64,000 nucleotides of DNA from Patescibacteria group bacterium. GTDB taxonomy: Bacteria > Patescibacteriota > Minisyncoccia > UBA6257 > UBA11618. This document shows, in pieces, positions 15,929 through 55,978 of this stretch (the first letter of the stretch is position 1; each line of letters opens with the position of its first letter). The stretch spans positions 2,332-66,331 of the forward strand of contig JBDRBW010000008.1 in assembly GCA_043822345.1 (NCBI GenBank). The letters run 5' to 3'. Both the position numbers and the translations under genes were made by a program. The notes below the pieces were generated by a model, which searched no databases, was not told the DNA's origin, and worked only from the letters and a program-made list of their open reading frames with translations.

Positions 15929-15936
15929 AAATTAAA

Positions 15937-15966
15937 AAATCTCTGACAAGGTCAGAGATTTTTTCT
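15937..15966 (+). terminator. Intrinsic terminator at the end of the Bat-like operon
   Basis: Reads aatctctgac-aag-gtcagagatt followed by TTTTTT. Confidence 0.6.
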
Positions 15967-17163: not shown

Positions 17164-17286
17164 TCATCCTGCCGCCCACAAGGGCGAGCCTCGCCTTCGG
17201 CGGGAGCATAGTCGAAGGATCTTTAAAAGATTCTTCCTGCCCGCAAGTGCTACAGCGTTGCAGGCGGGCATTCCATTCAGAATGAC
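17164..17286. repeat. Family-1 composite palindromic element (long form with two GC sub-hairpins)
   Basis: Reads gtcatcctg...gaaggatctttaaaagattcttc...cattcagaatgac. One sub-module is the reverse complement of a module in the 38428-38536 copy. Confidence 0.7.
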
Positions 17287-18675: not shown

Positions 18676-18720
18676 GGAGGGTTGGCAGAGCGGTTTAATG
18701 CAGCGGTCTTGCCACCGCCT
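18676..18720 (+). pseudogene. Orphan 5' half of a type-II (Ser-like) tRNA, with no matching 3' half
   Basis: GGAGGGTTGGCAGAGCGGTTTAATGCAGCGGTCTTGCCACCGC matches the 5' portion of the Ser tRNAs here (acceptor, D-arm, anticodon stem). It is preceded by an extended -10 (tgtggtataat). The hairpin repeats follow instead of a variable arm and T-arm. Confidence 0.4.
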
Positions 18721-18767
18721 TCGGCGGGGTCCCGCTTACCTTGATTTTGTAAAAGGTAATAGGCGGG
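18705..18767 (+). repeat. Two-hairpin structured repeat, copy 1
   Basis: Consensus GGTCTTGCC-ACCGCC-TTCG-GCGGGGT-CCCGCTTACCTT-(AT loop)-AGGTAGTAAGCGGG-AAAAACCGC. Four copies lie within ~700 bp. Confidence 0.6.
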
Positions 18768-18832
18768 CCACCGCCTACGGCGGGGTCCCACTTACCTTAT
18801 TTTTAAAAAAGTAGTAAGCGGGAAAAAACCGC
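18768..18832 (+). repeat. Two-hairpin structured repeat, copy 2 (fused to copy 1)
   Basis: Reads ccaccgcctacggcggggtcccacttacctt-atttttaaaaa-agtagtaagcgggaaaaaaccgc. Confidence 0.6.
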
Positions 18833-18842
18833 ATTCGTTATC

Positions 18843-19088
18843 ATGTATAGTGTTTATATTCTGAAAAGTTTGCACCATAATAGATATTATGTTGGCCATA
18901 CTGAAAATATTGTCAAAAGATTGATCCAACACAATAATGGCAAAGTACGTTCCACAAAAGGATATCGACCTTGGCGGTTGGTTTATCAGGAAAACTTTTC
19001 TACCAAACAACTTGCTTACAGAAGAGAATTACTCATAAAATCTTACAAACACGGAGAAGCGTTCAAAAAGTTGATAGAGGAGGGGTGA
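18843..19088 (+). CDS. GIY-YIG nuclease-family protein (small stand-alone, UPF0213/YhbQ-like)
   Basis: YSVYILKS...RYYVGHTENIVKRLIQHNNG...RPWRLVYQE is a GIY-YIG core. 81 aa. Confidence 0.65.
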   Translation: MYSVYILKSLHHNRYYVGHTENIVKRLIQHNNGKVRSTKGYRPWRLVYQENFSTKQLAYRRELLIKSYKHGEAFKKLIEEG

Positions 19089-19104
19089 TAAATAATATCA
19101 GAGC

Positions 19105-19186
19105 GGAGGGTTGGCAGAATGGCAATGCACTGGTTTTGAAAACCAGCGGGCGCAAGCCCTTACAGGTTCGAGTCCTGTACCCTCCG
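19105..19186 (+). tRNA. tRNA-Ser (anticodon TGA), type II
   Basis: Reads GGAGGGTTGGCAGAATGGCAATGCACTGGTTTTGAAAACCAG-CGGGCGCAAGCCCTTAC-AGGTTCGAGTCCTGTACCCTCCG. Flanked by an inverted repeat (atatcagagc / gctctgatat). Confidence 0.85.
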
Positions 19187-19204
19187 CTCTGATATTATTT
19201 GCAT

Positions 19205-19275
19205 GGTCTTGCCACCGCCTTTGGCGGGGTCCCGCTTACCTTATTTTTAAAAAAGTAGTAAGCGGGAAAAACCGC
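19205..19275 (+). repeat. Two-hairpin structured repeat, copy 3
   Basis: Same consensus as copy 1. Runs directly into the orphan tRNA 3' half. Confidence 0.6.
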
Positions 19276-19318
19276 TATGTCCGAAAGGGCATCGTGGGTT
19301 CGAATCTCACCCCCTCCG
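19271..19318 (+). pseudogene. Orphan 3' half of a type-II tRNA (anticodon-stem 3' strand, variable arm, T-arm, acceptor)
   Basis: Reads ACCGC-TATGTCCGAAAGGGCATC-GTGGGTTCGAATCTCAC-CCCCTCC-G. No 5' half lies upstream, only the repeat. The 3' flank ctctggtattatt matches the flank of tRNA-Ser(TGA). Confidence 0.45.
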
Positions 19319-19337
19319 CTCTGGTATTATTCAAAAC

Positions 19338-19411
19338 GGTCTTGCCACCGCCTTCGGCGGGGTCCCGCCCACCTTAATTTTTAAAAAAAGGTAGTAGGCG
19401 GGAAAAACCGC
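19338..19411 (+). repeat. Two-hairpin structured repeat, copy 4
   Basis: Reads ggtcttgccaccgccttcggcggggtcccgcccacctt-aatttttaaaaaa-aggtagtaggcgggaaaaaccgc. Confidence 0.6.
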
Positions 19412-21636: not shown

Positions 21637-21770
21637 AGTTTATTTGGAGGAGATAGACAATATTTTATTGCTAAATTGCTTTATTGCTAGATTGCTCATC
21701 CTCTCTAGTTCTCCCTTAGAGAGGGAGAAAAAACAGTATAACAATACAGCAATATAACAATAAAAAAACT
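21637..21770. repeat. Intergenic repeat family 3 copy, in the divergent comF/pilM promoter region
   Basis: Reads ttgctaaattgctttattgctagattgc ... ctcccttagagagggag ... aaaaaacagtataacaatacagcaatataacaataaaaaaa. ORF-track entry 21569-21757 is a spurious translation of it. Confidence 0.5.
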
Positions 21771-21788
21771 ATGATATAATTTAATTAT

Positions 21789-23533: not shown

Positions 23534-23628
23534 GTCATTCTGAGCTTCGCGCCCGCCTGCAACGCTTGAGCGTAGCGATTGCGGGCAGGAAGAATCTTTA
23601 AAAGATCCCTCGACAAGCTCGGGATGAC
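23534..23628. repeat. Family-1 palindromic element (long form)
   Basis: Reads gtcattctgagcttcgcgcccgcctgcaacgc...gcgattgcgggcaggaagaatctttaaaagatccctcgacaagctcgggatgac. Confidence 0.7.
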
Positions 23629-26296: not shown

Positions 26297-26385
26297 TAGT
26301 GTCATCCCGCACTATAGTGTCATCCCGCACTATAGTGTCATCCCGCACTATAGTGTCATCCCGCACTATAGTGTCATCCCGCACT
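26296..26385. repeat. Tandem array of 5 x 18 bp (atagtgtcatcccgcact) immediately after the pilB stop
   Basis: Five perfect direct repeats. Each unit is a mini-hairpin containing the family-1 terminus gtcatccc. ORF-track entry 26259-26513 is a spurious translation. Confidence 0.8.
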
Positions 26386-26470
26386 TGATGCGGGATCCAT
26401 TACATCACTGTCATCCCGGAATCCTTCCCATCTGTCATCCCGGAATTTCGCGCAGCGAAATATCCGGGAT
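26386..26470. repeat. Cluster of short palindromes related to family 1 (gtcatcccgca..tgcgggatc; gtcatcccggaatttcgcg...cgaaatatccgggatc)
   Basis: Read directly from the sequence. Confidence 0.5.
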
Positions 26471-26478
26471 CTATATTT

Positions 26479-26877: not shown

Positions 26878-28185
26878 ATGAAAAAGCAAAACGCTTTTTG
26901 GTTGATGTTTGCCATTATCATGGTTGGTTTTGTTTTAATTTGGGTTGGCGGTAGTTTTGGCTCCACATCGCAACCAAGGGTTCAAGCTGCTTCCTGTCTC
27001 GATCCACCAACTTGTCCTGACCCAATGACTTCGGCTTGTGTGCGAATTGAGCCCTCGGGTTCAATCTGTACTACTGCTAGTGGTTGGCGTAGTCCAAGTA
27101 GGGCTTGGTGCGGTGAATTAATGAGCGGTGGTCACTACGAACTTACTAATGGTGGTTGTGCCGCTCCGGGATTTGAAAGTTGCTCCGCTTGCACAGGAAG
27201 TAACTGCTATTCCCTTTCTTATGACTGTGCTGGCAGTACGCCAATACATAAGCCAGTAGTAAAATGCACCGAATGTTACAAGGGTCTGTGCGGAGAAGAG
27301 CCCCCTTGTGGTAATGGCAGGTTAGAACTAGAAGAATGTGAAGAGTGTGATGACAGCAATACTATTAGTGGCGATGGCTGTAGTGACAGGTGTGAGATTG
27401 AGGGCACCGATCCAGTTTGTGGCAATAGCAAAAGAGAGGGAGATGAAGAGTGTGATGGAGACGATATTGCTGATTGTCCAAGGCCCGATTGTGAATGCAC
27501 GATTAGATGTAACGATGATTGTGTATGTGTTTATGATCCGATTGAGCCAGAGTGTGGCAACAGCATTGTTGAACCGCCAGAGCAGTGCGACGACGGCAAC
27601 ACTGACGACACTGATGGTTGTATGAATTGTATGATACAAAAAGGAAATTGTGAGCCGTCAGGGCTTTGTGGCAATGGAGAAGTGACGCCACCCGAGCAGT
27701 GTGAAGGTAGTGGAAGTTGTGAGAGTGTTTGTGTGGGTGATAAAGAGGGATGGATAGAGTATTGTGGTGATAAGCCTCTAGGAGCCTGCTCAGGAGCGCA
27801 CTGTGAGGTAGATGGCGCTAGTTGTATTCCCACATTTGACGAGGATGGAATGGATAATTTCTGTCAAGGTATACCGAGCTGTACTGGAACTATTTTTTGT
27901 AAATTAGCTGGAGCAGGAGCGACCTGCAACCCCGATTCTTGTATGTGTGAACCGCCAGTAACCGAATGTGGTAATGGTATTACAGAACCACCAGAACAAT
28001 GCGACGATGGCAATAATATTGACGGCGATGGCTGCGGTAGCACCTGCGTAATAGAGGGTGGCGGTGGAGATTGTGGCGGTGTTACTTGTGGGAGTGGGGA
28101 GAAGTGTTGTATTTGCGATCCGTTTCATGGAATGGACTCATACTGCACTACTATCAGCGACTGCATCTGTCCAATTTCCGATTAA
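26878..28185 (+). CDS. N-terminally anchored cysteine-rich repeat surface protein (Myxococcus-type CxxC-x-PPEQCDDGN-x4-DGC repeats)
   Basis: Start MKKQNAFWLMFAIIMVGFVLIWV (TM anchor). Multiple ~38-aa repeats of the form CGNG..EPPEQCDDGNT.DGDGC..C. Confidence 0.7.
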   Translation: MKKQNAFWLMFAIIMVGFVLIWVGGSFGSTSQPRVQAASCLDPPTCPDPMTSACVRIEPSGSICTTASGWRSPSRAWCGELMSGGHYELTNGGCAAPGFESCSACTGSNCYSLSYDCAGSTPIHKPVVKCTECYKGLCGEEPPCGNGRLELEECEECDDSNTISGDGCSDRCEIEGTDPVCGNSKREGDEECDGDDIADCPRPDCECTIRCNDDCVCVYDPIEPECGNSIVEPPEQCDDGNTDDTDGCMNCMIQKGNCEPSGLCGNGEVTPPEQCEGSGSCESVCVGDKEGWIEYCGDKPLGACSGAHCEVDGASCIPTFDEDGMDNFCQGIPSCTGTIFCKLAGAGATCNPDSCMCEPPVTECGNGITEPPEQCDDGNNIDGDGCGSTCVIEGGGGDCGGVTCGSGEKCCICDPFHGMDSYCTTISDCICPISD

Positions 28186-28196
28186 TAAATAAACAT

Positions 28197-29840
28197 ATGA
28201 AATCAATTCCACTAAAAACGAAATTATCCAATCAAGCTCTATTTTGGGTGGTTTTTGTTGTGGTGGTTGTTGGATTAATATTGTTATTTGCTTTTAGTAA
28301 TAATTGGCGAGCGCTGGCGGACACGCAATATTGCACCGAAGATGGCTCTGGTGGTGTTTTTACTAATGCGCTTGGTTGGGCATCGCATGCCACTCCATTT
28401 TGTTGCGCTGGAAGTATAAGTTCGTGTATTTCGGTTCCTAGTTGCAGTGGTAGCGGTTGTTATCTCCATAATTTTTCTTGTATGGGAGACACACCAGTAA
28501 GCGCAGAAGATCCAATAAGTTCGTGTGGTAATGGAATTTGTGGTAATAGCACTCCAGAACCACCGGAGCAGTGCGACGATGGCAATACTGTGAGTGGCGA
28601 TGGCTGTAGTAGTACTTGTACTAATGAAGGGGGAGGAGGTTGTGGTAGTTGTGGTGATAGGGCGTTGAATTTGGGTGAGGGATGTGATGATGGCAATATT
28701 GTTGACGGTGATGGTTGTAGCAGTATTTGTGAGGATGAAGATGAAGTTTGGTCTACCAGCGAAGAATGTCAGAATGCCAATTACCCGCTCTGTTGTCCTT
28801 ATAACCCAGTAGTAAGTGGATTTACTCCTCTCGCGGGAACCGATTGCAGTGATCTTCCATTCCCTACCTGTTTTAATTGTGTGTTTGATTTATATCAAGA
28901 GACATGTGAACCGGGAATAGATGAAACGGCTTGCGCTGATTATGAGAGATGTATTTTCTGTAGTTGTACGCCTACGGGTACTCCTCACCCCGGTTTTTGT
29001 GGTGATAGTATTATAGATGAAGGTGAGGAATGTGATGATGGTCAGTATTGTGAGAATGGAACACCTTGTACAGAAGAGGATGATAGAGAATGTCTTGGTA
29101 TTGGTGATGGATTGTGCAAACCTCGCGGTGGCGATGGTTGTAGTTATTATTGTCAAATCGAAGGCGGTTTTTGTGGCGATGGCATTTTAGAGCCGCCGGA
29201 ATTTTGTGAAATTGATGCGGATTGCGCAATCTTTGGTTCTTCAAAATGCAAGAGCGATTGCACGTGCGATGAAATACCACCCGATGAATGTTTATATTGC
29301 GGTGATGGAATAGTAAACTTGAGTTTGGAGCAATGCGATGATGGCAATAATACCAACGGTGATGGCTGTAGTTATAATTGCAAGATAGAGACCGGTCCCA
29401 TGTGCGTAATCGGCGATGGCGTCATCAATCCTCCCGATGAAAATTGTGATACCGATGCGGATTGTGGAGAGTGTGTTCCTCATGAGGACTGCTTTGGTTT
29501 CATGTGCGAAGGATTAGATGCCGATAGTTGTGCGCATACAGAGTGTGTACCGGGAACATCTGGCAGTAGTTGTCCTAAAGTATGTACTCTTGATGGTGGC
29601 TACTGTGAACCCAGTTCCGGTCTAATAGATTACTGTACAGGATTAGAACCATCAGAGTGTAGCGGCTACAATCCAGTGGTAGGGGGGCCAAAAAATCCAT
29701 ATTGCGCAGGTAGTGGGGCAGGAACTTGTTACCCCGACACCTGTAACTGCGACTTGCCATTAGGCACGCCAGGGCAGATATGGGACAGTATTATTAATAA
29801 GACCATGAAATCATATCTTAATAATTATATTAATGAGTAA
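28197..29840 (+). CDS. N-terminally anchored cysteine-rich repeat surface protein, paralog
   Basis: Start MKSIPLKTKLSNQALFWVVFVVVVVGLILLF. The N-terminal ~145 aa are near-identical to the protein at 30721. Several CDDGN..DGDGCS repeats. Confidence 0.7.
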   Translation: MKSIPLKTKLSNQALFWVVFVVVVVGLILLFAFSNNWRALADTQYCTEDGSGGVFTNALGWASHATPFCCAGSISSCISVPSCSGSGCYLHNFSCMGDTPVSAEDPISSCGNGICGNSTPEPPEQCDDGNTVSGDGCSSTCTNEGGGGCGSCGDRALNLGEGCDDGNIVDGDGCSSICEDEDEVWSTSEECQNANYPLCCPYNPVVSGFTPLAGTDCSDLPFPTCFNCVFDLYQETCEPGIDETACADYERCIFCSCTPTGTPHPGFCGDSIIDEGEECDDGQYCENGTPCTEEDDRECLGIGDGLCKPRGGDGCSYYCQIEGGFCGDGILEPPEFCEIDADCAIFGSSKCKSDCTCDEIPPDECLYCGDGIVNLSLEQCDDGNNTNGDGCSYNCKIETGPMCVIGDGVINPPDENCDTDADCGECVPHEDCFGFMCEGLDADSCAHTECVPGTSGSSCPKVCTLDGGYCEPSSGLIDYCTGLEPSECSGYNPVVGGPKNPYCAGSGAGTCYPDTCNCDLPLGTPGQIWDSIINKTMKSYLNNYINE

Positions 29841-30702
29841 ATTAAATCTGCAAAAAATGAAATTAACCAACCAGCCGTTGTTTTGGCTAATATTCATTAT
29901 AATAGTCATTGGATTAGTTTTGTTGTTTACTATAGACGTTTTTGGAATTACTGGTCGTCAGACAAGAATTTTGGCTGGTGGATATTGTGGTGATGGAAAC
30001 GTTGATACTGGCTTGGGCGAACAGTGCGATGATGGCAACAGAATTATAGGCGACGGCTGTGATAACTGCCAAATTACAGGTGGCGGTTATTGCGGAGATG
30101 GTAATTTAGACGCCGGTGAAGAATGTGACGATGGCAATACTAATAATAATGATGGCTGCGCCGACTGTCGCAGGCAAACTCCAGGATGCGTTATTAGGTG
30201 TGGCAATGGAGAAGTGACGCCACCCGAGGAGTGTGATGATGGTAATCTCACTAACGGCGATGGCTGTAGTAGTACTTGTCAAAACGAGCGTCCCAGTCAG
30301 TGTGAATATCCAGTGTGTAGCGATATTAAAGATTGTGAAAAGTGTAATAGCTACGACGCCTGCCGTTGGGGAACACAGATAGGTGTTTGTTTGTTTATGG
30401 ATAAGTGTGAGCCGCCTCTAGTAGAGAGTATAAATGGTTGCGTGCCTTGTGGGGGTGTGGAGAGATGCGAGCCTGGCTCCTGTCCAAGTGGTTATTCTTG
30501 TTGCCTCGCTTCTAGTGGAGTCAGTGAGTGCGTCCTGGGTTTTGATTGTGGCGGCTTTATTCCTTGCGGCGACGGTCCCCCGTGTATGGCTGCAACAGAG
30601 GAGTGTTGTATGACGGCAACAATGGGGCCAACCTGCATACCCAAAGGAGCGCATTGTGAAAAAAGCGGACCCGGATCTCCTATTTTCTGGAGATGGAATT
30701 AG
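29833..30702 (+). CDS. N-terminally anchored cysteine-rich repeat surface protein, short paralog
   Basis: MSKLNLQKMKLTNQPLFWLIFIIIVIGLVLLF, followed by CGDGN..EQCDDGN repeats. Confidence 0.65.
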   Translation: MSKLNLQKMKLTNQPLFWLIFIIIVIGLVLLFTIDVFGITGRQTRILAGGYCGDGNVDTGLGEQCDDGNRIIGDGCDNCQITGGGYCGDGNLDAGEECDDGNTNNNDGCADCRRQTPGCVIRCGNGEVTPPEECDDGNLTNGDGCSSTCQNERPSQCEYPVCSDIKDCEKCNSYDACRWGTQIGVCLFMDKCEPPLVESINGCVPCGGVERCEPGSCPSGYSCCLASSGVSECVLGFDCGGFIPCGDGPPCMAATEECCMTATMGPTCIPKGAHCEKSGPGSPIFWRWN

Positions 30703-30720
30703 GGGTAATTAATAAAAAAG

Positions 30721-33700
30721 ATGTTTAACAAATCCAACTCACTAAAAACAAAATTATCTAATCAAATGCTTTTTTGGGTGGTTTTTGTTGTGGTGGTTGT
30801 TGGATTAATATTGTTATTTGCTTTTAGTAATAATTGGCGAGCATTAGCGGACACGCAATATTGCACCGAAGATGGCTCTGGTGGTGTTTTTACTAATGCG
30901 CTTGGTTGGGCATCGCATGCCACTCCATTTTGTTGCGCTGGAAGTATAACTTTGTGTATTTCGGTTTCTAGTTGCAGTGGTAGCGATTGCTATCTCCATA
31001 ATTTTTCTTGTATGGGAGATACACCAGTAAGCGCAGAAGATCCAATAAGTTCGTGTGGTAATGGAATCTGTGGCAACAACAGCGTTGAGCCGCCAGAGCA
31101 GTGCGACGATGGTAATACTACTGATGGCGATGGATGCAGTAGCGCTTGTACTAATGAAGGGGGAGGAGGTTGTGGCGATTGTGCAAATGATAGCGACTGC
31201 GTTGATATGGGGATGGGGGATCCTTCTAGTTCTTGTTATCTAGGTTTTGGCGGTAGTTCGTTATTAATGGTGGAGTGCGTAGTATCAACTGGGGAATGTG
31301 TTCTTGGTGAATGTGATAGGAATGAGGATTGCGGTATGTATGTTGATGGCGTGGGTTGGGCTCCTGGGCTTTGTGATTTTAGACAGAGGCCTTTTCCCGA
31401 TATCGAATCTGAGCGATCGGAAGGTTTATATGGTATATGCGCTCCCGATGCTCCTTGTTGCATGGGGAAAGAAGCGGGATACGAAGAATTTTGTTTTGGG
31501 TTTATAGAACCTGATCAATGTTCAGAAGCTCATTTACCAGGTAGTTTCGATTATCTTTGTCAATGGATTTGCCCAGTCTGCGGCAATGATATTTTAGAAC
31601 CGCCTTATGAACAATGCGACGACGGCAATACTACCAACGGCGACGGCTGTAGTTCTACTTGTCAAATCGAAGGCGGAGATATTTGCTGTGTACCTAATCC
31701 TGATTGCGGTGGTCTTGCCTGTGATGGTCTTAGTATAGAAGATTGTGAAAATTCTAAGTGTATTTCAGGCACTATTCCTGGTGGTGATTGTGTGCGGTCG
31801 TGCGCCTACTCTAGTGGTGAGTGTAAGCCCAGCGCCGGCGCAGGTGATCATTGTAAAGCATTATCAGATTCAGCGTGTGAAGCTGATCCCTATTGTAAAC
31901 CCGACCCTGACGCGGATTGTGGTTCTCCAAACTGCGAGGGTTGCGGTGATGGTGAAGTTAATGATCCAAAGGAAGAGTGCGACGACGGCAATAATGTAAG
32001 CGGCGACGGTTGTAGTTATAATTGCAAGATAGAAACTGGCGGTATGTGTGGCGATGGCATAGTAACTCCTCCTGAGGAGTGCGATGATAACAATAATATA
32101 GATGGAGATGGTTGTGCCGCGGATTGTACATATGAAGAGTGCCGCTTCTGTGGCGATGGAACCGTAGACTCTGATATTGGCGAGCAGTGTGAAGGTAGTG
32201 GAAGTTGTGAGAGTGTTTGTGTGGGTGATAAAGAGGGATGGATAGAGTATTGTGGTGATAAACCCTCAGGAACCTGCTCAGGAGTGCACTGTGAGGTAGA
32301 TGGCGCTAGTTGTATTCCCACATTTGACGAGGATGGAATGGATAATTTCTGTCAAGGTATACCGAGCTGTACAGGAACTATTTTTTGTAAATTAGCTGGA
32401 GCAGGAGCGACCTGCAACCCCGATTCTTGTATGTGTGAACCGCCAGTAACCGAATGTGGTAATGGTACCGTGGACCCAGGCGAGGAGTGCGACGACGGCA
32501 ATCATAATAGCGGCGACGGTTGTAGTTATAATTGCAAGATAGAAACTGGCGGCATGTGCGTAATTGGCGATGGGATTATTAATACTCCCGATGAAAATTG
32601 TGATGGTGATGGGGATTGTGCTTCTGTTGGTGGTTGTGTAGCAAATCCTGAGAAGAATTGGCAGGATTGGTGTCAATGGCTTAGTGGGCTTCTCGGTGGT
32701 GGTTGTGCGGCGATTGGACCAGAGTGTCAATTAGAAGGCGGTTTATGTGTGCCTGGGCCAGTGTTAGACGACCCCGAAGAAAGACAATCCGCTTGTGATT
32801 TGGCGGGTAGTTTATCAGAGATGAGATGTCGTGATGCTTATCATGCAGGTGACGCGGGACCAGATGATGGAGGATGTAAGTGGGTTGAAGAAGGAGGCGG
32901 TGGCATCTGCAACCCCGATTCTTGTATGTGTGAAATACCACCAGCCGAGTGTGGCGATGGCATAGTAACTCCTCCTGAGGAGTGCGATGATAACAATAAT
33001 ATAGATGGCGATGGCTGTAGCGCTACTTGTCAGATTGAAGGCGGTATGTGCGTCATTGGCGATGGGATTATTAATACTCCCGATGAAAATTGTGATGGTG
33101 ATGGGGATTGCGGGGGAATTTGTGTATCTTCGCCGTTAGAGTGGCAAGATTTTTGCCACATGGAACCCATAGATGATTGTACCTCATTCTATTGTAAAGT
33201 AGATGGCACGGAATGTGTCCCTGCATTTGATGACGAGGGAATGGAAGATTATTGTTCGATCAGAAAAATTGAACCAAGGTGTTGGAATATATTTTGCAAA
33301 TGGGCTGATAAGAGTACCTGCGACCCCGATACCTGTATGTGTGAACTTCCAGAGCCTGAATGTGGCGACCATGTAATAGACCCACCCGAGCAGTGCGATG
33401 ATGGTAATCGCACCGATGGTGATGGTTGTGATAAGAATTGTAAAGATGAAACGGGTAAAAAAGTATGCGGCGATGGTGAAGTCAATCAACCCGAAGAGGA
33501 GTGCGATGAAGGTACTGCTGATACAGCGACCTGTGATAGAGATTGTACCCTCGTGGCTTGTGGTGATAATCATGTAAATACTGTGGCTGGCGAGCAGTGT
33601 GATGATGGAAATACCAACAATAACGACGGTTGTAGCGCCTCCTGTCAGTGGGAGTCGGCGACTGGCTGTATTCCTCTTCGAGCAAATCAAAACGAAACAG

Positions 33701-39624: not shown

Positions 39625-39706
39625 GTCATCCTGAGGGCGAAGTCGAGTCTGACTCGACGTAGCCCGAAGGATCTTTAAAAAGATTCTTCACCTTGTTCAG
39701 AATGAC
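39625..39706. repeat. Family-1 palindromic element
   Basis: Reads gtcatcctgagggcgaagtcgagtctgactcgacgtagcccgaaggatctttaaaaagattcttcaccttgttcagaatgac. Confidence 0.7.
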
Positions 39707-40938: not shown

Positions 40939-40986
40939 CGTCATCCTGAGCAGAGCGTAGCGTAGTCGAAGGATCTTGTGTATAAT
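40939..40986 (+). promoter_or_regulatory. Half family-1 element followed by an extended -10 (TGTGTATAAT) placing the TSS at or near the pilin ATG
   Basis: gtcatcctgagcagagcgtagcgtagtcgaaggatc, then ttgtgTATAATaaaaagATG. Possible leaderless pilin mRNA. Confidence 0.5.
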
Positions 40987-40992
40987 AAAAAG

Positions 40993-41433
40993 ATGAACAA
41001 CAAAAAGGGATTCACCTTAATTGAGTTATTAGTCGTAATATTTATCATTGGCCTCTTGGCATCGGTAGTGCTAGTTGGCTTAGGCACCTTCCGGGCGCGC
41101 GGACGCGATGCTCGCCGGATAGCCGACCTTCGTTCCACGCAGAATATTCTGGAGCTTTATTACGCCAAAAGTGGCCAGTATCCCAATGTTGGCAGTTGGA
41201 GTGATTTGAAAAACGAGCTAGTGGGCGCCAGTATCGGTGTCAGCGCTATTCCCAACGATCCCAGTAGTGGCGAGGACTATCAGTATGGCACCAGCGCCAG
41301 TAATCAGAGTTATGCTTTAGGGGCTAAATTGGAAGATGTAGACCACCCCGTCTTGAGGGACGATGTTGACGGCGGTGGAGGCAGTAATTACGGTGTTAAT
41401 TGTGATGACCCAGTTTACTGCGTTAAGTTTTAG
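40993..41433 (+). CDS. pilA: Major type IV pilin (prepilin; leader MNNKKG|FTLIELLVV)
   Basis: Class III signal with G-1/F+1/E+5 and a hydrophobic N-terminal helix. 146 aa. Confidence 0.8.
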   Translation: MNNKKGFTLIELLVVIFIIGLLASVVLVGLGTFRARGRDARRIADLRSTQNILELYYAKSGQYPNVGSWSDLKNELVGASIGVSAIPNDPSSGEDYQYGTSASNQSYALGAKLEDVDHPVLRDDVDGGGGSNYGVNCDDPVYCVKF

Positions 41434-42313
41434 TATAATTCTCTTTCTCTTCGGTTTAAGCATCGGCAGTTTTCTTAATGTGGTGGCTTTGCGTTATCGT
41501 GGCGCCGGCCGTCTTTTTAGCTTTAAAAAAAAACGTTCTCATTGTCCTTATTGTGATAAAGCATTGGCGTGGTATGAATTAATACCGCTTCTTAGTTTTG
41601 TTATCCAATTTGGCAGATGTCACCATTGTGATCAACGTCTTTCTTGGCAGTATCCTTTGGGCGAGTTATTAGGCGGCTTGGTATTATTATTACCGGTTTA
41701 TTTTTACAACTATTACGACATTTTCCACCGCGCGCTGGTTGGTGAGATAATCTGGCCTTATTATGTTCTTATCGCTGTTTGGACATTAGCCGCTCTGGCG
41801 ATGCTTTTATTAACGCTTATTGATTGGCATCTCAAAATCATCCCCGACCAAATTAATTTATTTTTATTGAGTTTGGGAATTGTCGGCGCCGTCATCTTGA
41901 GCGGAACGAGCGTAGCGAGTGGAGTCGAAAGATCTCATAATCTTTCATTTTTAGAGAACTACGCCGAAATCTTTGGCGGTCCCTCCAGTATTTGGCTTAA
42001 CCACCTGATGGCGGCGGCGGTTGGTCTGCTGTTTTTCGGCTTTATTATTGTCGCTAGCCGTGGCCGGGCGATGGGGGTCGGCGACCTCAAACTAGCCGGC
42101 GCTCTCGGCCTTCTTCTTGGCTGGCCGGACATTATTCTTACCATCGCTAGTTCCTTCGTCGTCGGCTCGCTCTGGGGCATCTATCTCTTAATTTTCAAAA
42201 GCAAGACCCTCAAATCCACTGTTCCTTTCGGCCCCTTCCTCGTCATCGGCGTCTTCATCACCATCTTTTTCGGCCACGATCTAGCCAGCTGGTACTTCTC
42301 ACTTATGTTATAA
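41405..42313 (+). CDS. pilD: Prepilin peptidase PilD (A24 family), carrying an in-frame insertion derived from a family-1 element
   Basis: CPYC...CHHC zinc motif; catalytic Asp in LIDWHLKIIPD and in GVGDLKL. Start inferred at MTQFTALSF. Confidence 0.75.
   Translation: MTQFTALSFSIILFLFGLSIGSFLNVVALRYRGAGRLFSFKKKRSHCPYCDKALAWYELIPLLSFVIQFGRCHHCDQRLSWQYPLGELLGGLVLLLPVYFYNYYDIFHRALVGEIIWPYYVLIAVWTLAALAMLLLTLIDWHLKIIPDQINLFLLSLGIVGAVILSGTSVASGVERSHNLSFLENYAEIFGGPSSIWLNHLMAAAVGLLFFGFIIVASRGRAMGVGDLKLAGALGLLLGWPDIILTIASSFVVGSLWGIYLLIFKSKTLKSTVPFGPFLVIGVFITIFFGHDLASWYFSLML
41891..41948. repeat. Family-1-like element inside the pilD coding frame
   Basis: gtcatcttgagcggaacgagcgtagcgagtggagtcgaaagatctcataatctttcatt encodes ~VILSGTSVASGVERSHNLSF between the two catalytic Asp motifs. 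Confidence 0.6.
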
Positions 42314-42841: not shown

Positions 42842-43351
42842 ATGAAAACCCTATACCCTAAACCCTATACCCTAAACCCTAAAAATGGTTACATTCTTGT
42901 GGAATCGGTGGTGGCGATGACGATAGTTGTTGTCGGTCTTTTGGGCATCTTTTCTTTACTTTCCCAATCACTAAGCTTGAATCGGGTGGTGGGGGATAGA
43001 TATGTGGGCACTTACTTGGCGGCCGAGGGTATTGAGGTGGCGAAGAATATTATTGACAATAATATCGTCAACAGCCGCCCTTGGAACGCCGGTTTTAGCA
43101 ACGGCTCATTTGAGGTTGATTTTGATAGCTTGAGCTTGGAAAGTAATCTTAACCGCTACATCAAGCTTGACTCGCCTAATGGCCGTTATGGTTATCGCGA
43201 TGGCGCCGACACTCGTTTCAAAAGAACGATTAAGATTGAGTTATTAGGTAGCGGTGAGGAAATCAAGGTTAATTCTGTTGTTAAGTGGCTTAGCCGTGGC
43301 GAAGCCGACTTTAAGGTCGATTTAGAAGACCACTTCTTTAACTGGCGTTAA
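42842..43351 (+). CDS. Minor pilin / pseudopilin (leader MKTLYPKPYTLNPKNG|YILVESVVA)
   Basis: Prepilin motif. The leader is encoded by CCCTAAA/CCCTATA simple repeats. Confidence 0.6.
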   Translation: MKTLYPKPYTLNPKNGYILVESVVAMTIVVVGLLGIFSLLSQSLSLNRVVGDRYVGTYLAAEGIEVAKNIIDNNIVNSRPWNAGFSNGSFEVDFDSLSLESNLNRYIKLDSPNGRYGYRDGADTRFKRTIKIELLGSGEEIKVNSVVKWLSRGEADFKVDLEDHFFNWR

Positions 43352-43860
43352 TGATCACAAAAACACAAAAACACAAAAACACCCGTGGCTTCACTATGAT
43401 CGAATTACTGGTTGCTACCACTCTTTTTGTGGTGGTGATTGGCATTGCTTCAGGTCTGTTTATCCAATCATTGCGTAGCCAGCGGGCGACGATGGCGCTG
43501 ATGGCCGCCAACGATAACGCCAGTTTAACTTTAGAGCAGATGTCGCGGGAGATTCGCATCGGTTCAATGTTTTCCACCAATAGCGATGGCACGCAGTTGA
43601 GTTTTACCAGTCAGCGCTCTGGCGCGGTAATTTACCGCTTTGACGACGCTAATGGCTTGATAGAAAGAAACGGCATCGCGCTTACTAGTGACAATGTTGA
43701 AGTCGTTTATTTATATTTTGATTTGATGGGCGAGGAGTTGGGCGATGGCCAGTCAACGCGCGTGACTATTCGTCTGGGAGTGAGCGCTAATGATGAGCGC
43801 GCTCAAGATATTGTTACTCGTTTACAAACAACAGTTAGTTCCCGTCAACTTGACACTTAA
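43351..43860 (+). CDS. Minor pilin / pseudopilin (leader MITKTQKHKNTRG|FTMIELLVA)
   Basis: Prepilin motif. The leader is encoded by ACACAAAAAC repeats (family-2 element) flanked by a direct ATGATC repeat. Confidence 0.6.
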   Translation: MITKTQKHKNTRGFTMIELLVATTLFVVVIGIASGLFIQSLRSQRATMALMAANDNASLTLEQMSREIRIGSMFSTNSDGTQLSFTSQRSGAVIYRFDDANGLIERNGIALTSDNVEVVYLYFDLMGEELGDGQSTRVTIRLGVSANDERAQDIVTRLQTTVSSRQLDT

Positions 43861-43862
43861 TC

Positions 43863-43945
43863 ATGAAAACACAAAAACACAAAAGCACCCGGCCTTCGGC
43901 CTCAAAACACATGAATAATTGTTTTCGTGTTTTCGTGTTTTCGTG
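43863..43945. repeat. Family-2 element (ACACAAAAAC direct repeats, GGCCTTCGGCC hairpin, inverted TTTTCGTGTTTTCGTG repeats)
   Basis: Read directly. Related copies lie at 43351-43395 and 50950-51033. Confidence 0.6.
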
Positions 43946-45247: not shown

Positions 45248-46339
45248 ATGAACTTAAACCAACTTCACAATCAAGCCCAAAAAGAAATCCAAGCGACTAA
45301 AGACGCCAAAACTTTGGAGGTTTTGCGTATTAAATATCTGGGCCGTAAAAGCGAGCTGACAAAGATTTTGCGTTCACTGGCTCAACAATCATTAGGCGAA
45401 CGAAAAAAAATAGGCCCTGCCGCCAACACTCTAAAAAAAGAACTAAGCCAACTTTTTAATTCGCAAATCAAAAAGTTGGAAACCAGAAACCAGAAACCAG
45501 AAACCAAAATAGACTTAACCCTGCCGGGCAAAAAAATTACCCAAGGGCATCTGCATATTTTGACTAAAGTAGAAAATGAGATTAGAGATATTTTCAAAAG
45601 CTTAAATTTTTCCGTTGTTGAGGGGCCGGAAGTGGAGACCGAATATAATAATTTTGACGCCCTTAATATTCCCCAAGATCATCCGGCGCGGGATATGTGG
45701 GATACGTTTTGGCTTCGCCAAAACTCTGGAAGCCAGAAACTAGAAGCTAGAAGCCAGAAATTATTGATGCGTACCCATACTAGTCCGATGCAGATAAGGT
45801 ATATGCAAAAGCATCAGCCGCCCTTTCAGATTATTGTGCCGGGGCGGGTTTTTCGCCATGAGGCGACCGATTTTTCTCACGAATTTAATTTTCATCAGAT
45901 TGAAGGCCTAATGGTAGGCGAGGACGTTTCAATGGCTCATCTTAAATTTGTGATCGAGGAGTTTTTCAGTAGATTCTTCGCTAACGCTCCCGCCGACGCT
46001 AAAGCTAAGGCGGGCAGGCAGAATGACAAGAGTGGCGTGGAAGTTCGGCTACGGCCCAGTTATTTTCCTTTTGTTGAACCCGGTGTGGAGATAGATGTGA
46101 AAATGCCTGCCCGAAACGCTTCGCGTAACGATGCGGGCGGGGCTGGCAAGGGATGGTTGGAGATGGCTGGCGCCGGTATGGTTCACCCTAATGTTTTTAA
46201 GGCGGTTGGCTATAATCCAAATAACGTCCAGGGCTTCGCCTTTGGTTTTGGTATGGAGCGGCTGGCGATGATTAAATACAATATTCCCGATATCAGATTA
46301 TTCCACTCCGGCGATTTAAGGTTCGTTAGGCAATTTTAA
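45248..46339 (+). CDS. pheS: Phenylalanine--tRNA ligase alpha subunit, with in-frame simple-repeat insertions
   Basis: Class II aaRS motifs (FRHEATDFSHEFNFHQIEG, GFAFGFGMERLAM). CCAGAAA x4 at 45479-45508 and ggaagccagaaactagaagctagaagccagaaa at 45728-45760 add extra residues. Confidence 0.9.
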   Translation: MNLNQLHNQAQKEIQATKDAKTLEVLRIKYLGRKSELTKILRSLAQQSLGERKKIGPAANTLKKELSQLFNSQIKKLETRNQKPETKIDLTLPGKKITQGHLHILTKVENEIRDIFKSLNFSVVEGPEVETEYNNFDALNIPQDHPARDMWDTFWLRQNSGSQKLEARSQKLLMRTHTSPMQIRYMQKHQPPFQIIVPGRVFRHEATDFSHEFNFHQIEGLMVGEDVSMAHLKFVIEEFFSRFFANAPADAKAKAGRQNDKSGVEVRLRPSYFPFVEPGVEIDVKMPARNASRNDAGGAGKGWLEMAGAGMVHPNVFKAVGYNPNNVQGFAFGFGMERLAMIKYNIPDIRLFHSGDLRFVRQF

Positions 46340-46346
46340 TAATCCG

Positions 46347-46426
46347 TCATCCTGAGGACGAAGTCGAGTCTGACTCGACGAAGCCCGAAGGATCTTTTAA
46401 AGATTCTTCACTTCGTTCAGAATGAC
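46347..46426. repeat. Family-1 palindromic element
   Basis: Reads gtcatcctgaggacgaagtcgagtctgactcgacgaagcccgaaggatcttttaaagattcttcacttcgttcagaatgac. Confidence 0.7.
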
Positions 46427-46436
46427 TAATAAGACA

Positions 46437-48398
46437 ATGAAATTCTCATACAAACTTCTAAAACAACTCGTTCCAAAATTACCCAATGCGCAAAAAACGG
46501 CAGAGCTTTTATCATTACACCTTTTTGAAAGCGAGGTGATTGGTAAGGATATTTTGGAGATTGATGTTTTGCCCAATCGCTACTCGGATGCGGCATGTTA
46601 CGTTGGACTAGCAAAAGAGCTTTGTGCTTTGTTGGGTGGTTCTTTGACTAATCCAAGAACTAAAAAGATTGCCACACTCCCTTCGGTCGTTCGCAATGAC
46701 GGGAAAGTGATATTCGATGTAATAGTTAAAACCAAGCTGTGTAATCGGATGGCGGCTAGATACTTTGAGGATATTAAAATAAAGCCATCTCCCAAATGGA
46801 TGCAGGATGCTCTGCGCGCCAGTGGTATACAGCTAATCAACAATCTGGTTGATATTACTAATTATGTAACTTTGGAAACCGGCCAGCCGTTGCACGCTTT
46901 TGATTTTGACAAGATGGCGGGCGGTAAATTAATTGTTCGTCCGGCAAAAGGGGGAGAAAAAGTTACTTCTTTAGAAAATGCCGTCTACGATCTCAACCCT
47001 AATAATTTAGTGCTAGCTGATGGCAAAGAGCCGTTGGATGTTGCCGGTATTAAAGGCGGTAAGAAAGCTGAAATCACCTCGGCTACTAAAAATATTCTTT
47101 TAACCGCCGGCAGTTTTGACGGCGTTAGTATTTATAAAACATCGCGTCAGATTAATTTAGCCACCGACGCTTCAATCCGCTTCTCCCACAATATCAGCCC
47201 CGAATTAGTGGCAGTGGGCATAGCCAGAGCCACGCAATTAATAAAAGAACTATGTGGCGGTAAAACCGGTGTTCTTGTGGATATCTACCAAAACAAACCG
47301 AGCCGCCGCCTGATTAAATTTGATATCAATCGGTTTAACAACATTAGTGGTCTAGAGCTAAAAGAGAAAGAGGCGCTAGGTTATCTCAAGAAATTGGGAT
47401 TTGTCATTAAAGATAATTTAGTTGAGCCGCCGGCGATCCGGACTGACATTAGTATTTTTGAGGATTTGGTGGAAGAGGCGGCCAGATTACACGGCTATCA
47501 CAACATCAAATCACAGCCCCCGCAGATATTTATGCGCACCTCTGAATTTGAGGATCGCATTAATTTCAAAGACAATATTAGAAAGATACTTATCAGCTTT
47601 GGCTTGGATGAGGTGTACAATTATTCTTTTTTATCAGCTCATGATTTATCGCGCGAAGGGCTACCGGCGGCTTTTGAGCTGGAAAATCCGGTTAGTAAGG
47701 AATTCGCTTTTCTCCGACCGTCACTTTTGCCGGGATTGGCAAAGGCGCTAGACAGCAATCTACGCTTTATTGAAAAACCAGCCATCTTTGAGATCGGCCG
47801 TGTTTTCAAGGGGTCGCTGGCCAAAAAAGAGTTGGTTGATGAACGATTAAATTTAGGAATGGCTATCGCTGACAAGCGCGGCGCCTTTCTAGAAATTAAG
47901 GGCGCGATTGATGGCTTATTTGAGCAGTTGGGCATAGTTGATTATTTAATGAAAGAAGACACTCAACAGCCGTCTACAAAATTAATTATAGAATCTGACG
48001 GTAAAGAAATCGGCTGTGTTTTACATAAAAAGGACGGCAAAACTGCCCTAGTGGAAGTGGATCTTGATGATTTATTGAATCTGGTTGAGGGGGAGAAGAG
48101 CTATGAACCCCTGCCGAAGTTTCCATCAATCATGCGCGATATTTCAATGTTGGTGCCACAGGAAATTCGTTTTACTCAGATTATGTCTTTGATAGAAAAC
48201 ACCGCCCCCAAGTATCTTGACGATGTTGATCTAATCGATTTCTATGAGGATGAAAAATTCTCTCACGGAAACCGAAGCTTAACTTTTCGCTTGGTGTTTT
48301 TGGACCGCGGTAAAACTTTGACCGACAAAGAGGTTGATGTAGAGATGAAAAAAATTACTAAAATATTGGTGGATAAGTTGGGAGTTGAGATTAGGTAA
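46437..48398 (+). CDS. pheT: Phenylalanine--tRNA ligase beta subunit (short form, 654 aa)
   Basis: Start MKFSYKLLKQL. Has B3/4 and B5-like regions and a C-terminal anticodon-binding-like domain. Follows pheS. Confidence 0.8.
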   Translation: MKFSYKLLKQLVPKLPNAQKTAELLSLHLFESEVIGKDILEIDVLPNRYSDAACYVGLAKELCALLGGSLTNPRTKKIATLPSVVRNDGKVIFDVIVKTKLCNRMAARYFEDIKIKPSPKWMQDALRASGIQLINNLVDITNYVTLETGQPLHAFDFDKMAGGKLIVRPAKGGEKVTSLENAVYDLNPNNLVLADGKEPLDVAGIKGGKKAEITSATKNILLTAGSFDGVSIYKTSRQINLATDASIRFSHNISPELVAVGIARATQLIKELCGGKTGVLVDIYQNKPSRRLIKFDINRFNNISGLELKEKEALGYLKKLGFVIKDNLVEPPAIRTDISIFEDLVEEAARLHGYHNIKSQPPQIFMRTSEFEDRINFKDNIRKILISFGLDEVYNYSFLSAHDLSREGLPAAFELENPVSKEFAFLRPSLLPGLAKALDSNLRFIEKPAIFEIGRVFKGSLAKKELVDERLNLGMAIADKRGAFLEIKGAIDGLFEQLGIVDYLMKEDTQQPSTKLIIESDGKEIGCVLHKKDGKTALVEVDLDDLLNLVEGEKSYEPLPKFPSIMRDISMLVPQEIRFTQIMSLIENTAPKYLDDVDLIDFYEDEKFSHGNRSLTFRLVFLDRGKTLTDKEVDVEMKKITKILVDKLGVEIR

Positions 48399-50766: not shown

Positions 50767-50952
50767 ATGAATATTGAGAAGATCAAATCTTTTCTTCAAG
50801 AATCAAAAAAAGAATTCAGGCGAGTCAACTGGCCGACTTATCAAGAGACAGTGCGGTTAACGATTATCGTAGTTGCTATGTCCCTATTAGTCGCCGCTTT
50901 TCTCGGTTTGTTTGATTTTATTTTTCTTATCGGATTAGAATCTTTACTATGA
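50767..50952 (+). CDS. secE: Preprotein translocase subunit SecE
   Basis: 61 aa, single C-terminal TM, conserved position before nusG. Confidence 0.65.
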   Translation: MNIEKIKSFLQESKKEFRRVNWPTYQETVRLTIIVVAMSLLVAAFLGLFDFIFLIGLESLL

Positions 50953-51033
50953 TTACGAAAACACGAAAACACGAAAACACGAAAACAACGGCGCTTTTGT
51001 GTTTAGGCCGAAGGCCGTATGTTTTTGTGTTTT
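50950..51033. repeat. Family-2 element between secE and nusG
   Basis: Reads atgattacgaaaacacgaaaacacgaaaacacgaaaaca...ggccgaaggcc...tgtttttgtgtttta. It overlaps the secE stop codon. Confidence 0.6.
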
Positions 51034-54547: not shown

Positions 54548-55978
54548 ATGAAAAGCGATTCTTATCAACCGACTATTGGCCTTGAAATTCATACTGAACT
54601 CAAAACGCAGACCAAGATGTTCTGTGATTGCCTCAATGATTCAGACGAAAAACACCCTAACGTTAATATCTGCTCGGTTTGCTCCGGCCACCCGGGCGTT
54701 TTACCGACCATCAATAAAAAAGCGGTGGAGTTAGTTTTAAAAACAGGTATTGCTCTAGGTGGCAAGGTTTTTCCAAAAATTAGGAGCAAATTTGATCGCA
54801 AAAATTATTTTTACCCCGATCTTCCTAAGGGTTATCAAATCTCTCAATATGACGAGCCGTTGGTGGAAGGCGGTAAATTATTCGACGTTCGTGTTCGCCG
54901 CATTCATTTAGAAGAAGATGCCGGTCGACTAGTACATTCCGATAAAAACTATTCTTTAGTGGACTTCAATCGGGCGGGGGTGCCGTTAATGGAATTAGTC
55001 ACCGAACCCGATATTAAGGATGCTAATCAGGCGATGGAGTTTGCTAAAGAATTGCGGCTGATTTTGCGTTACTTGGGTGTTTCTGACGCTGATATGGAAA
55101 AGGGTCAGTTACGTCTTGAAGTAAATGTGTCTCTTGCGCCTGCTACCGCCGAGTTAGGTACTAAGGTTGAGGTGAAGAACATTAATTCTTTCAAGGCATT
55201 GGGGGAAGCGATTGGCTATGAAATAAGGCGCCAAACAGAGTTATTGGAGGCGGGTAAAAAAATCATTCAGGAAACTAGAGGGTGGAGCGATCCGAAAAAA
55301 AGTACCGTTTCTCAGCGAAGTAAGGAAGAAGCCCATGACTACCGTTATTTTCCTGAACCCGATCTGCCGCCATTTGACTCTAAATCATTTAACCTTAAAA
55401 ACTTAAAAATAGAGGTACCGGAATTACCGGAGGACAAGCGCCAAAGATTTGGTAAGGAATTTGGTCTCAGTAATGATCAGGCAAACCTTTTAGTACAAGA
55501 TATGGCTGGCGCCGATTACTTTGAGCAAGCGGCCTCGGAGTTGGAAAGCCCTAATCAGATAAATTTATTATTTAATTATATTACCAGCGATCTTTGGGGT
55601 TTAATGAAAAACGAGGGTGTTACTCTTGAAAATTTAAAAATAACCCCCCAGCATCTAGCGCATCTGATTGGTATGATTGACTCCAAAGAAATTACCAGTC
55701 GTATTGCCAAGAACGTTCTGGTAAAAATGGCGGAGAATGGCCTTGATCCCCATGAGATTGTGGAAAACGAAAAATGGACACAGATTTCCGATAAGAGCCA
55801 ATTAGGGGAGGTGATAGAGAAAGTTATTATTAATAATCCCAAGGCGGCGGCCGATTACAAAAAAGGCAAAACCAACGCCTTACAGTTTCTTGTTGGTATG
55901 GCGATGTCTGAATTGGGCGGCAACGCTGATCCCAACGAATTAAGAGAAATTATTTCCTCTGAGCTATCTCGCTCTTAA
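54548..55978 (+). CDS. gatB: Asp/Glu-tRNA(Asn/Gln) amidotransferase subunit B
   Basis: IGLEIHTELKT...MFCDC N-terminus and GatB/YqeY C-terminal domain. Confidence 0.9.
   Translation: MKSDSYQPTIGLEIHTELKTQTKMFCDCLNDSDEKHPNVNICSVCSGHPGVLPTINKKAVELVLKTGIALGGKVFPKIRSKFDRKNYFYPDLPKGYQISQYDEPLVEGGKLFDVRVRRIHLEEDAGRLVHSDKNYSLVDFNRAGVPLMELVTEPDIKDANQAMEFAKELRLILRYLGVSDADMEKGQLRLEVNVSLAPATAELGTKVEVKNINSFKALGEAIGYEIRRQTELLEAGKKIIQETRGWSDPKKSTVSQRSKEEAHDYRYFPEPDLPPFDSKSFNLKNLKIEVPELPEDKRQRFGKEFGLSNDQANLLVQDMAGADYFEQAASELESPNQINLLFNYITSDLWGLMKNEGVTLENLKITPQHLAHLIGMIDSKEITSRIAKNVLVKMAENGLDPHEIVENEKWTQISDKSQLGEVIEKVIINNPKAAADYKKGKTNALQFLVGMAMSELGGNADPNELREIISSELSRS

Follow-up and report, generated by a model that had tools for sequence, protein, structure and literature searches.

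The closest described systems are the CGTC-tagged REPs and the RPEs of Rickettsia. CGTC-tagged REPs have been described in five phyla, mostly in Alphaproteobacteria (Di Nocera, De Gregorio & Rocco 2013, PMC3733652). In the portion of that account drawn on here, a unit consists of an unpaired CGTC (or TGTC/CCTC) tag, a stem of 8–9 bp with A-T at positions 1–2, a loop of 4–5 nt and a short 3′ tail that is mostly CCA. Head-to-head dimers predominate, intragenic units occur, and the same portion connects the repeats with no associated or known transposase. RPEs are about 150 bp long, and each encodes a conserved peptide (Ogata et al. 2000, 2002, as summarised in the relevant part of PMC10969869). 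RPE-4 and RPE-6 are CGTC REPs themselves, and the peptides VIPAKAGI and DSRFRGND of Rickettsia conorii are REP-encoded, according to the same portion of PMC3733652.

Here we describe a repeat family found in 64 kb of DNA, on a contig of 67.7 kb, from the MAG of a Patescibacteria group bacterium (the window, meaning the whole stretch of 64,000 nucleotides that was analysed), one copy of which lies inside the prepilin peptidase gene pilD. Judged by its sequence, the family fits the published CGTC-tagged REP superfamily as outlined above, and the repeat-encoded peptides of the window begin like the R. conorii peptides VIPAKAGI and DSRFRGND quoted there. The phenomenon of intragenic REPs and Rickettsia RPEs is known already; the pilD copy extends it to a new phylum and a new protein.

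A hairpin-repeat family in the window

The pattern GTCAT-NNN-G...GA-N′N′N′-ATC matched the window 24 times, against 0.02 matches expected from 200 dinucleotide shuffles. The modules take the form GTCAT-YYY-GA...GA-RRR-ATC. The two triplets were complementary in 24/24 modules having both anchors, complementarity not having been demanded in the selection; in the pilD copy they are CTT and AAG. An alignment of the 23 other copies showed the 5-bp stem to be 100% paired, with three covarying pairs, compared with 32–59% when the pairing partner was slid. A covariance model (R1) was built from these 23 copies, with the pilD copy left out, and gave the pilD copy 33.7 bits (E = 5e-7), a mid-range score for the family. 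The pilD copy is a true member of the window's hairpin-repeat family, far beyond chance. Its similarity to intergenic repeats, put forward by a sequence-only reading of this DNA, was borne out by the 24 modules and by the score.

The tag GTC was present in all 24 modules, preceded by C in 10 and by T in 7, and the pilD copy carries CGTC. All 24 stems have AT...AT ends. In the main family (ATYYY-GA-GC...GC-GA-RRRAT) stem positions 6–7 form a G.A/A.G step, and Watson–Crick pairing is therefore incomplete over the 9-position stem. Loops measure 3–5 nt in the short modules, inserts of 20–50 nt occur in the long ones, and the pilD interior is 27 nt. The tail is conserved as CTT or CTC (CTY), with CCA in the 26373 copy only. 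Ten head-to-head dimers (tags outside) and 4–5 single units were found in the window; the dimers mostly fill short gaps between co-directional genes. Within 3.5 kb of the pilus operon there are four REP sites. Apart from the copies in pilD and pheS, the modules referred to by position are:

26301–26390: tandem arrays of half-units
26373–26403: canonical unit GTC-ATCCCGCA-CTTGA-TGCGGGAT-CCA, with a perfect 8-bp stem and a 5-nt loop
38428–38537, unstranded: head-to-head module dimer upstream of pilT
39625–39706, unstranded: head-to-head module dimer filling the pilT–pilC gap
40940–40977, + strand: single module in the gap from pilC to the pilin gene, scoring 44.2 bits with the covariance model; it is the module most closely related to the pilD copy, with which it gives the best of the pairwise alignments
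46346–46426: head-to-head module dimer in the pheS/pheT gap

A search of the whole window against Rfam at gathering thresholds returned five tRNAs alone and left the repeats without a family. A literature search on the repeat sequence itself returned only unrelated primer sequences.

pilD, its operon and its protein

The type IV pilus operon around pilD is complete, comprising T2SSE ATPases, T2SSF, the major pilin and minor pilins. pilD is flanked by T2SSE, T2SSF and three N_methyl pilin-like genes, in the same gene order as in relatives, and shares with the pilin gene upstream of it, at 40990–41433, a 29-nt overlap that is also found in the relatives' locus L001. The features of the gene are:

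41405–42313, + strand: pilD CDS, type IV prepilin peptidase / N-methyltransferase, 302 aa plus stop (Pfam A24_N_bact and Peptidase_A24)
41822–41824, + strand: codon of D140, the first catalytic aspartate (LIDWH), an invariant column in 120 homologues
41891–41936, + strand: single REP-type module, with tag (C)GTC, 5′ arm ATCTT-GA-GC, variable interior, 3′ arm TC-GA-AAGAT and tail CTC (covariance model R1)
41891–41941, + strand: largest possible repeat-derived codon stretch, V163–N179 (VILSGTSVASGVERSHN in translation), with an uncertain 5′ boundary
41942–41965, + strand: native conserved motif LSFLENYA, outside the repeat (S181, F182 and Y186 conserved in at least 90% of homologues)
42083–42085, + strand: codon of D227, the second catalytic aspartate (GVGD, the GxGD motif), with G224, G226 and D227 invariant in 120 homologues

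The encoded protein matched Pfam A24_N_bact (1.2e-25) and Peptidase_A24 (6.2e-11), and its bit scores lay above the curated cut-offs (PF01478, 43.1 against 26.5; PF06750, 89.9 against 23). It was identical to the NCBI MAG protein P0001, which is named 'prepilin peptidase' and assigned to a Patescibacteria group bacterium. We classed as highly conserved those positions at which at least 90% of the 120 homologues agree. PilD keeps the consensus residue at 59 of 61 such positions, including both catalytic aspartates and the four cysteines of the cytoplasmic domain, in the methyltransferase part (C47, C50, C72 and C75, invariant in the 120 homologues). The two deviations, K43 for G and H73 for R, both fall within the methyltransferase domain. 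The 302-codon reading frame contains no frameshift or stop and has lost no catalytic residue. On this conservation PilD is apparently functional, and probably active.

Extent of the repeat-derived segment

The 58-nt string at 41891–41948 on the + strand, previously read as an in-frame insertion, does lie in the pilD frame, where it is translated as ...AVILSGTSVASGVERSHNLSFLE... It also lies, as had been stated, between the two catalytic aspartates, D140 and D227. The insertion had been put at about 20 residues, with LSFLE counted as repeat-derived. Both statements claim too much. S181, F182 and Y186 belong to an SFLxNY stretch which, on the alignment of homologues, is a native and nearly invariant PilD motif; because the LSFLENY motif that follows the segment is native, at most 17 residues (V163–N179) are repeat-encoded. 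The sequence ATCTCATAA is found 3′ of the module in several other copies too.

At the upstream end, V-I-L of PilD (DNA GTCATCTTG) aligns with L-I-L of the homologue P0002 (DNA CTCATCTTA), with 7/9 bases shared. This match implies that the first ~9–12 nt of the pilD module may be native. On sequence, the first module codons may be either native or a short match that was offered to the incoming repeat. Base composition did not discriminate the segment as foreign (GC content 0.49, against 0.45 for the whole gene). An intein or intron identity was considered and rejected on size and on missing motifs; there is no nucleophile after His-Asn (SHN-L).

The copy sits, as the alignment indicates, in a naturally length-variable loop (residues 159–180). 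Loop length ranged from 7 to 22 residues in the 120 homologues, with a mode of 18. At 22 residues the loop of PilD is the joint longest, equalled in four other homologues that form one small group. Among the eight nearest homologues (~60–61% identity) the loop has 9 residues in seven and 16 in P0002. The loop of PilD thus exceeds those of the seven by a net 13 residues, that of P0002 by 6 and the mode by 4. The extra segment that alignment with homologues had been expected to reveal is thus present relative to the nearest relatives, whereas a length of 22 residues is still within the natural range of 7–22.

Predicted structure and membrane placement

An AlphaFold (AF2) model of PilD, made with 120 sequences, had a mean pLDDT of 92.9. 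Its sole low-confidence block was residues 171–180 (pLDDT 68). In the model, a helix spanning residues 148–172 passes through VILSGTSVAS and is followed by a short turn. Structure prediction, which had been proposed as a means of locating the loop, thus placed the segment in the TM4–TM5 loop, with a dip in confidence at 171–180 only. A sequence search of the PDB with PilD gave no match, and a Foldseek search of the PDB with the AF2 model gave none that was significant, the top nominal matches being presenilin chains (E ~0.5).

Both catalytic aspartates of this type of enzyme are located at the cytoplasmic membrane boundary (PMC3584216). The K/R-rich loops of PilD are at residues 218–224 and 264–275. 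Taken with the order of helices in the model and the cytoplasmic position of the aspartates, these loops would place residues 173–195 outside. The segment, between TM4 and TM5, is thereby predicted to lie on the outer side of the membrane, away from the face that bears both catalytic aspartates.

Other in-gene copies and wider occurrence

A second internal, in-frame module was found in pheS:

45970–46027, − strand: module within pheS (45248–46339, + strand), encoding RFFANAPADAKAKAGRQNDK (covariance model, 27.4 bits, E = 3e-5)

This insert adds 13–16 residues relative to the PheS of T. thermophilus (1b70_A) and P. aeruginosa (4p71_C), and its hairpin is still predicted to form. The pilD and pheS copies are both in frame and free of stops, and they are read in the two frames in which modules of the family most often lack stops (F1 in 19/24 modules and R3 in 21/24). 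A module also occurs in the annotated N-terminus of a thrS-like gene, and the end of a nusB-like gene falls inside a module. A weak match in pheT (46665–46700, 17.7 bits) was rejected as an insertion and left uncounted, because it lies in a variable linker with only ~4 extra residues relative to PheT in the PDB.

In a scan of one genome per species, the module pattern was found at no fewer than 120 loci; by a rough calculation of our own, about 9 matches of this pattern would be expected by chance. The phylum labels among the matches listed were Nitrospirae, Chloroflexi, Acidobacteria, Bacteroidota, Firmicutes, Proteobacteria, Planctomycetes, Verrucomicrobia, Saccharibacteria, Gracilibacteria and others. 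In a Rickettsiales MAG, an in-frame dimer of the same module type lies in pheT and adds 11 residues.

Source and state of the pilD copy

The single unit at 40940–40977 lies 950 nt upstream of the pilD copy, in the same orientation and with the same CGCC before the tag. The two share CGCCGTCATC-TGAGC, GAGCGTAGC and AGTCGAA-GATCT, and the interior GAGCGTAGC is common to these two and occurs in no other copy.

The presence or absence of the insert in sister genomes had been named as a check. The syntenic pilus loci L001–L003 of the nearest relatives (53 kb) contained no modules by either pattern or covariance model (best 11.9 bits, E = 0.53), and the relatives' pilD gave no covariance model signal. 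Their intergenic gaps are a few bases long; the pilT–pilC gap is 6 nt or overlapping, where the window has a REP dimer. Apart from the identical P0001, a collection of 5.8 billion proteins held no PilD relative of more than 61% identity. Metagenomes were also scanned for an allele without the segment: the left-flank DNA gave no match, and the right-flank DNA gave one chance match, in an unrelated Bacteroidota-type sensor gene. Because no allele without the segment was found, the insertion event is one that we infer and did not observe; the exact boundaries and the enzyme activity have the same standing, since the collections searched held neither a close relative nor an empty-site allele. No target-site duplication was evident in the flanks.

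The pilD copy folded no better than shuffled sequence (z-scores of +1.16 as RNA and +0.45 as DNA), which leaves a functional hairpin there unsupported. The family stem appeared in the minimum-energy fold of 18 of the 24 modules, and 0/5 of its pairs formed in the pilD copy, which also had the weakest energy per nucleotide among modules of at least 36 nt. So poor a fold is more to be expected of a passenger in decay than of a functioning RNA element.

Discussion

We consider it probable that the segment is a tolerated, translated REP insertion in a length-variable loop of PilD, and that the gene still works. One unit of a CGTC-tagged REP, with a (C/T)GTC tag, an AT-starting stem and a short tail, would have become part of pilD by entering the TM4–TM5 loop, on what is predicted to be the outer face of the membrane. 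Being in frame and without stop codons, the unit would simply be translated, giving up to 17 residues (VILSGTSVASGVERSHN). The added residues would extend helix 4 and provide a flexible turn rich in Ser and Gly. It is likely that the copy is a neutral passenger, now decaying, whose interior would no longer form a stable hairpin, and that it derives from the almost identical single unit found 950 nt upstream within this operon. Tolerance of a repeat-derived loop was among the outcomes foreseen by the sequence-only reading, and the intact reading frame, the 59 of 61 conserved positions, the mean pLDDT of 92.9 and the variable loop all speak for it.

A native loop that merely resembles the repeat, having reached its present form by ordinary divergence without transfer of repeat DNA, would have a natural length (7–22 residues, with four other homologues at 22), a V-I-L that aligns with the native L-I-L of P0002 in similar codons, and a GC content that does not mark it as foreign, as is the case here. 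Such an origin is nevertheless very improbable, given the leave-out covariance model match at E = 5e-7 over all 46 nt with complementary CTT/AAG, the near match to the 40940 unit that includes the flanks, the lack of covariance model signal in the relatives' pilD, and the expectation of 0.02 chance occurrences of the pattern in the whole window. Patescibacteria genomes are under reductive evolution, which we count in favour of a different outcome, namely that the insertion inactivated or crippled PilD and left a recent pseudogene, or a cell in which prepilin is processed by another enzyme; the two deviating conserved positions in the N-terminal domain point the same way. We regard this as improbable, as the 302-codon reading frame is intact and retains both aspartates, GxGD, the four cysteines and 59/61 conserved positions. 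The fold is also predicted with confidence, with the segment far from the active-site face, the complete pilus operon (pilB/T/C, major and minor pilins) needs PilD, and the essential pheS tolerates the same kind of insert. Inactivation, which had been suggested as the alternative to tolerance, accordingly goes unsupported by any frameshift, stop or lost catalytic residue.

Two further explanations would give the copy a fate or a role as an element. Were the element removed from the RNA or the protein as an intron or intein is, the mature enzyme would be without the segment; this reading could draw on the family being a structured hairpin with covarying stems that forms part of operon transcripts, as in the pheS–pheT gap. 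Yet introns and inteins are all much larger than a piece of 46–51 nt (17 aa), and splicing motifs are absent. There is no Rfam match, the pilD copy folds no better than shuffles, and the pilD and pheS copies both keep the frame and lack stops, a property for which excision would have no need; translated REPs and RPEs, moreover, have precedent in the parts of PMC3733652 and PMC10969869 that deal with them. Excision at the RNA or protein level, also raised earlier for this segment, is therefore extremely improbable: intein or intron features and a fold above shuffles are wanting, and both internal copies can be read straight through, as their translation demands. Co-option of the copy, either as an RNA hairpin signalling processing, stability or translation pausing or as an outer loop with a new role, has somewhat more in its favour. 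The discussion of REPs available from PMC3733652 proposes that they serve as RNA elements where they separate genes transcribed together; four REP sites lie within 3.5 kb of the pilus operon; and the pilD copy retains its CTT/AAG pairing. Against this, no other module of 36 nt or more folds as weakly per nucleotide as the pilD copy, whose minimum-energy structure lacks the family stem and whose RNA z-score is +1.16, so that we give co-option little probability.

A broader version of the insertion reading is possible, if rather unlikely. CGTC-type REPs may have spread through the genome to an extent like that seen in Rickettsia, with units reaching essential coding sequences (internally in pilD and pheS, at the N-terminus of thrS and at the C-terminus of the nusB-like gene), with possible transposase-free local spread and an origin by template switching or gene conversion. 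The pilD copy would then have been made by one of these two processes from the unit 950 nt upstream, copying would have been seeded by a short native match (GCC-NTCATCTT), and the half-unit arrays at 26301–26390 would be by-products of the same process.

The tolerated, translated insertion bears on several matters beyond this gene. Repeat-derived peptides in housekeeping proteins would not be confined to Rickettsia and a few Proteobacteria, and would also occur in ultra-small Patescibacteria, where their hosts are a membrane protease of the type IV pilus and a subunit of an essential tRNA synthetase. For annotation and alignment of Patescibacteria proteins this serves as a warning that odd loops can be repeat DNA, and that the same repeat creates spurious N- and C-terminal extensions. 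The insertion may also be regarded as a natural test of how much extra sequence the TM4–TM5 loop of an A24 protease tolerates. It leaves knowledge of the prepilin peptidase mechanism unchanged.

Comparison with known repeat systems

The REPIN/RAYT system of GTAG REPs (Bertels & Rainey 2011, PMC3116915) resembles the window's family in that two inverted imperfect palindromes make up a dimer, singlets occur as remnants, and the elements are abundant and mostly intergenic. The tag differs, being GTC in the window and not GTAG. In-frame fusions of MITE and ERIC elements (Delihas 2007, as cited in the part of PMC10969869 concerned) are similar in being small non-autonomous repeats that are read within genes. 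MITEs, however, have terminal inverted repeats and target-site duplications, and none of the latter was evident at pilD.

The agreement with CGTC REPs extends further, within the published description referred to at the outset. Shared characters are the (C/T)GTC tag and the A-T/T-A start of the stem; the stem of ~9 positions and the short unpaired tail correspond in part. Both kinds of repeat occur mostly as head-to-head heterodimers between co-directional genes, and both include some intragenic units, among them units in tRNA synthetase genes. The window copy at 26373–26403 matches that description exactly. The main family of the window differs in its G.A/A.G stem step, which leaves the stem not fully Watson–Crick, in the 20–50 nt extra loop hairpins of many units (4–5 nt loops in the description) and in a CTY tail in place of CCA. 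The host differs as well: the window is from a Patescibacteria MAG, and no Patescibacteria were noticed among the hosts named in the corresponding part of PMC3733652.

The Rickettsia RPEs, as portrayed in the sources outlined above, are likewise palindromic repeats that interrupt various unrelated housekeeping genes without breaking the reading frame, in a host-dependent bacterium with a small genome. They too are translated, at sites where the protein fold is believed to accommodate them. The pilD unit differs from them in its length of 46 nt, its variable interior, the phylum of its host and the count of two internal cases in 64 kb. The pilD unit works like an RPE, yet stands outside the long RPE families.

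REP-type modules within coding sequences

The repeat family with an in-frame copy in pilD is also represented inside an essential gene, pheS, and at the ends of two further ORFs:

45248-46339, pheS, with an internal REP-type module
45970-46027, minus strand (opposite to pheS), in-frame pheS module
55950-57764, minus strand, thrS-like ORF, with a module at 57708-57736 within the annotated N-terminus
63068-63580, plus strand, nusB-like ORF, its 3' end inside a module at 63537-63611

The pheS module encodes RFFANAPADAKAKAGRQNDK, and relative to solved PheS structures the protein is 13-16 residues longer at this position. The module is still predicted to form a hairpin. A further stretch of the gene (46110-46145, CCTGCCCGAAACGCTTCGCGTAACGATGCGGGCGGG) codes for ARNASRNDAGG and, judged by eye, resembles the GC-rich interior hairpin of the modules at 17229-17286 and 23534-23596. 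It adds eight residues compared with T. thermophilus PheS, at a site that is variable in other species. This second stretch is possibly repeat-derived.

The module of the thrS-like ORF scored 25.6 bits against the covariance model of the family and reads KDSSPAAQNN, though its translation depends on the true start codon. At the other end of a gene, the nusB-like ORF takes its last 14 residues and stop codon from a module; a tandem duplication, GDREPT(S/P)GH, lies immediately ahead of this module-derived end.

Half-units and other repeats in the window

Incomplete and complete units of the family occur together within 26301-26472:

within 26301-26472, half-unit array of five tandem 18-nt units (GTCATCCCGCACTATAGT), each with the tag and 5' arm only
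26373-26403, complete canonical CGTC-type REP, GTC-ATCCCGCA-CTTGA-TGCGGGAT-CCA, following the array
26434-26472, further unit beyond the canonical REP

The array is unusual and may have a bearing on how REP repeats form.

Several other repeats were observed. (AAAACAC)n repeats of 8-nt period stand at the beginning of pilin-like genes (43346-43393, 43852-43899 and 50952-50991) and are read within the leader peptide, e.g. MITKTQKHKNTRGFTMIELL. Arrays of 8-nt period also occur in pairs, ATTGCTAnATTGCT... with the inverse AACAATATAACAAT..., at three sites (2865-2990, 15890-15940 and 21659-21777). A 61-nt repeat (GCCACCGCCTTCGGCGGGGTCCCGCTTACCTT...) occurs within 18711-19404 in four copies, which flank the tRNA gene 19105-19186; the GC-rich hairpin part of the repeat resembles the inserts inside some REP modules. 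At ~27300-33700, a very long stretch is made up of at least 15 copies of a Cys-rich unit with the pattern …CGNG…EQCDDGN…GDGCS…C…, presumably a single giant surface protein.

The same module type in other genomes

Modules of this type were also found in frame in a Rickettsiales MAG:

2784-5294 (coordinates of the MAG locus), pheT, with modules at 4083-4142 as an in-frame head-to-head dimer

The dimer reads …VIPNAQAEGSKDSSPMARND… and makes the protein 11 residues longer than P. aeruginosa PheT. On a contig of an uncultured Helicobacter sp. (~800-4415), long open frames are composed of many module-encoded units, reading DSSxxAQND and VMLSGSETS, an apparent case of amplification of the repeat within coding sequence.
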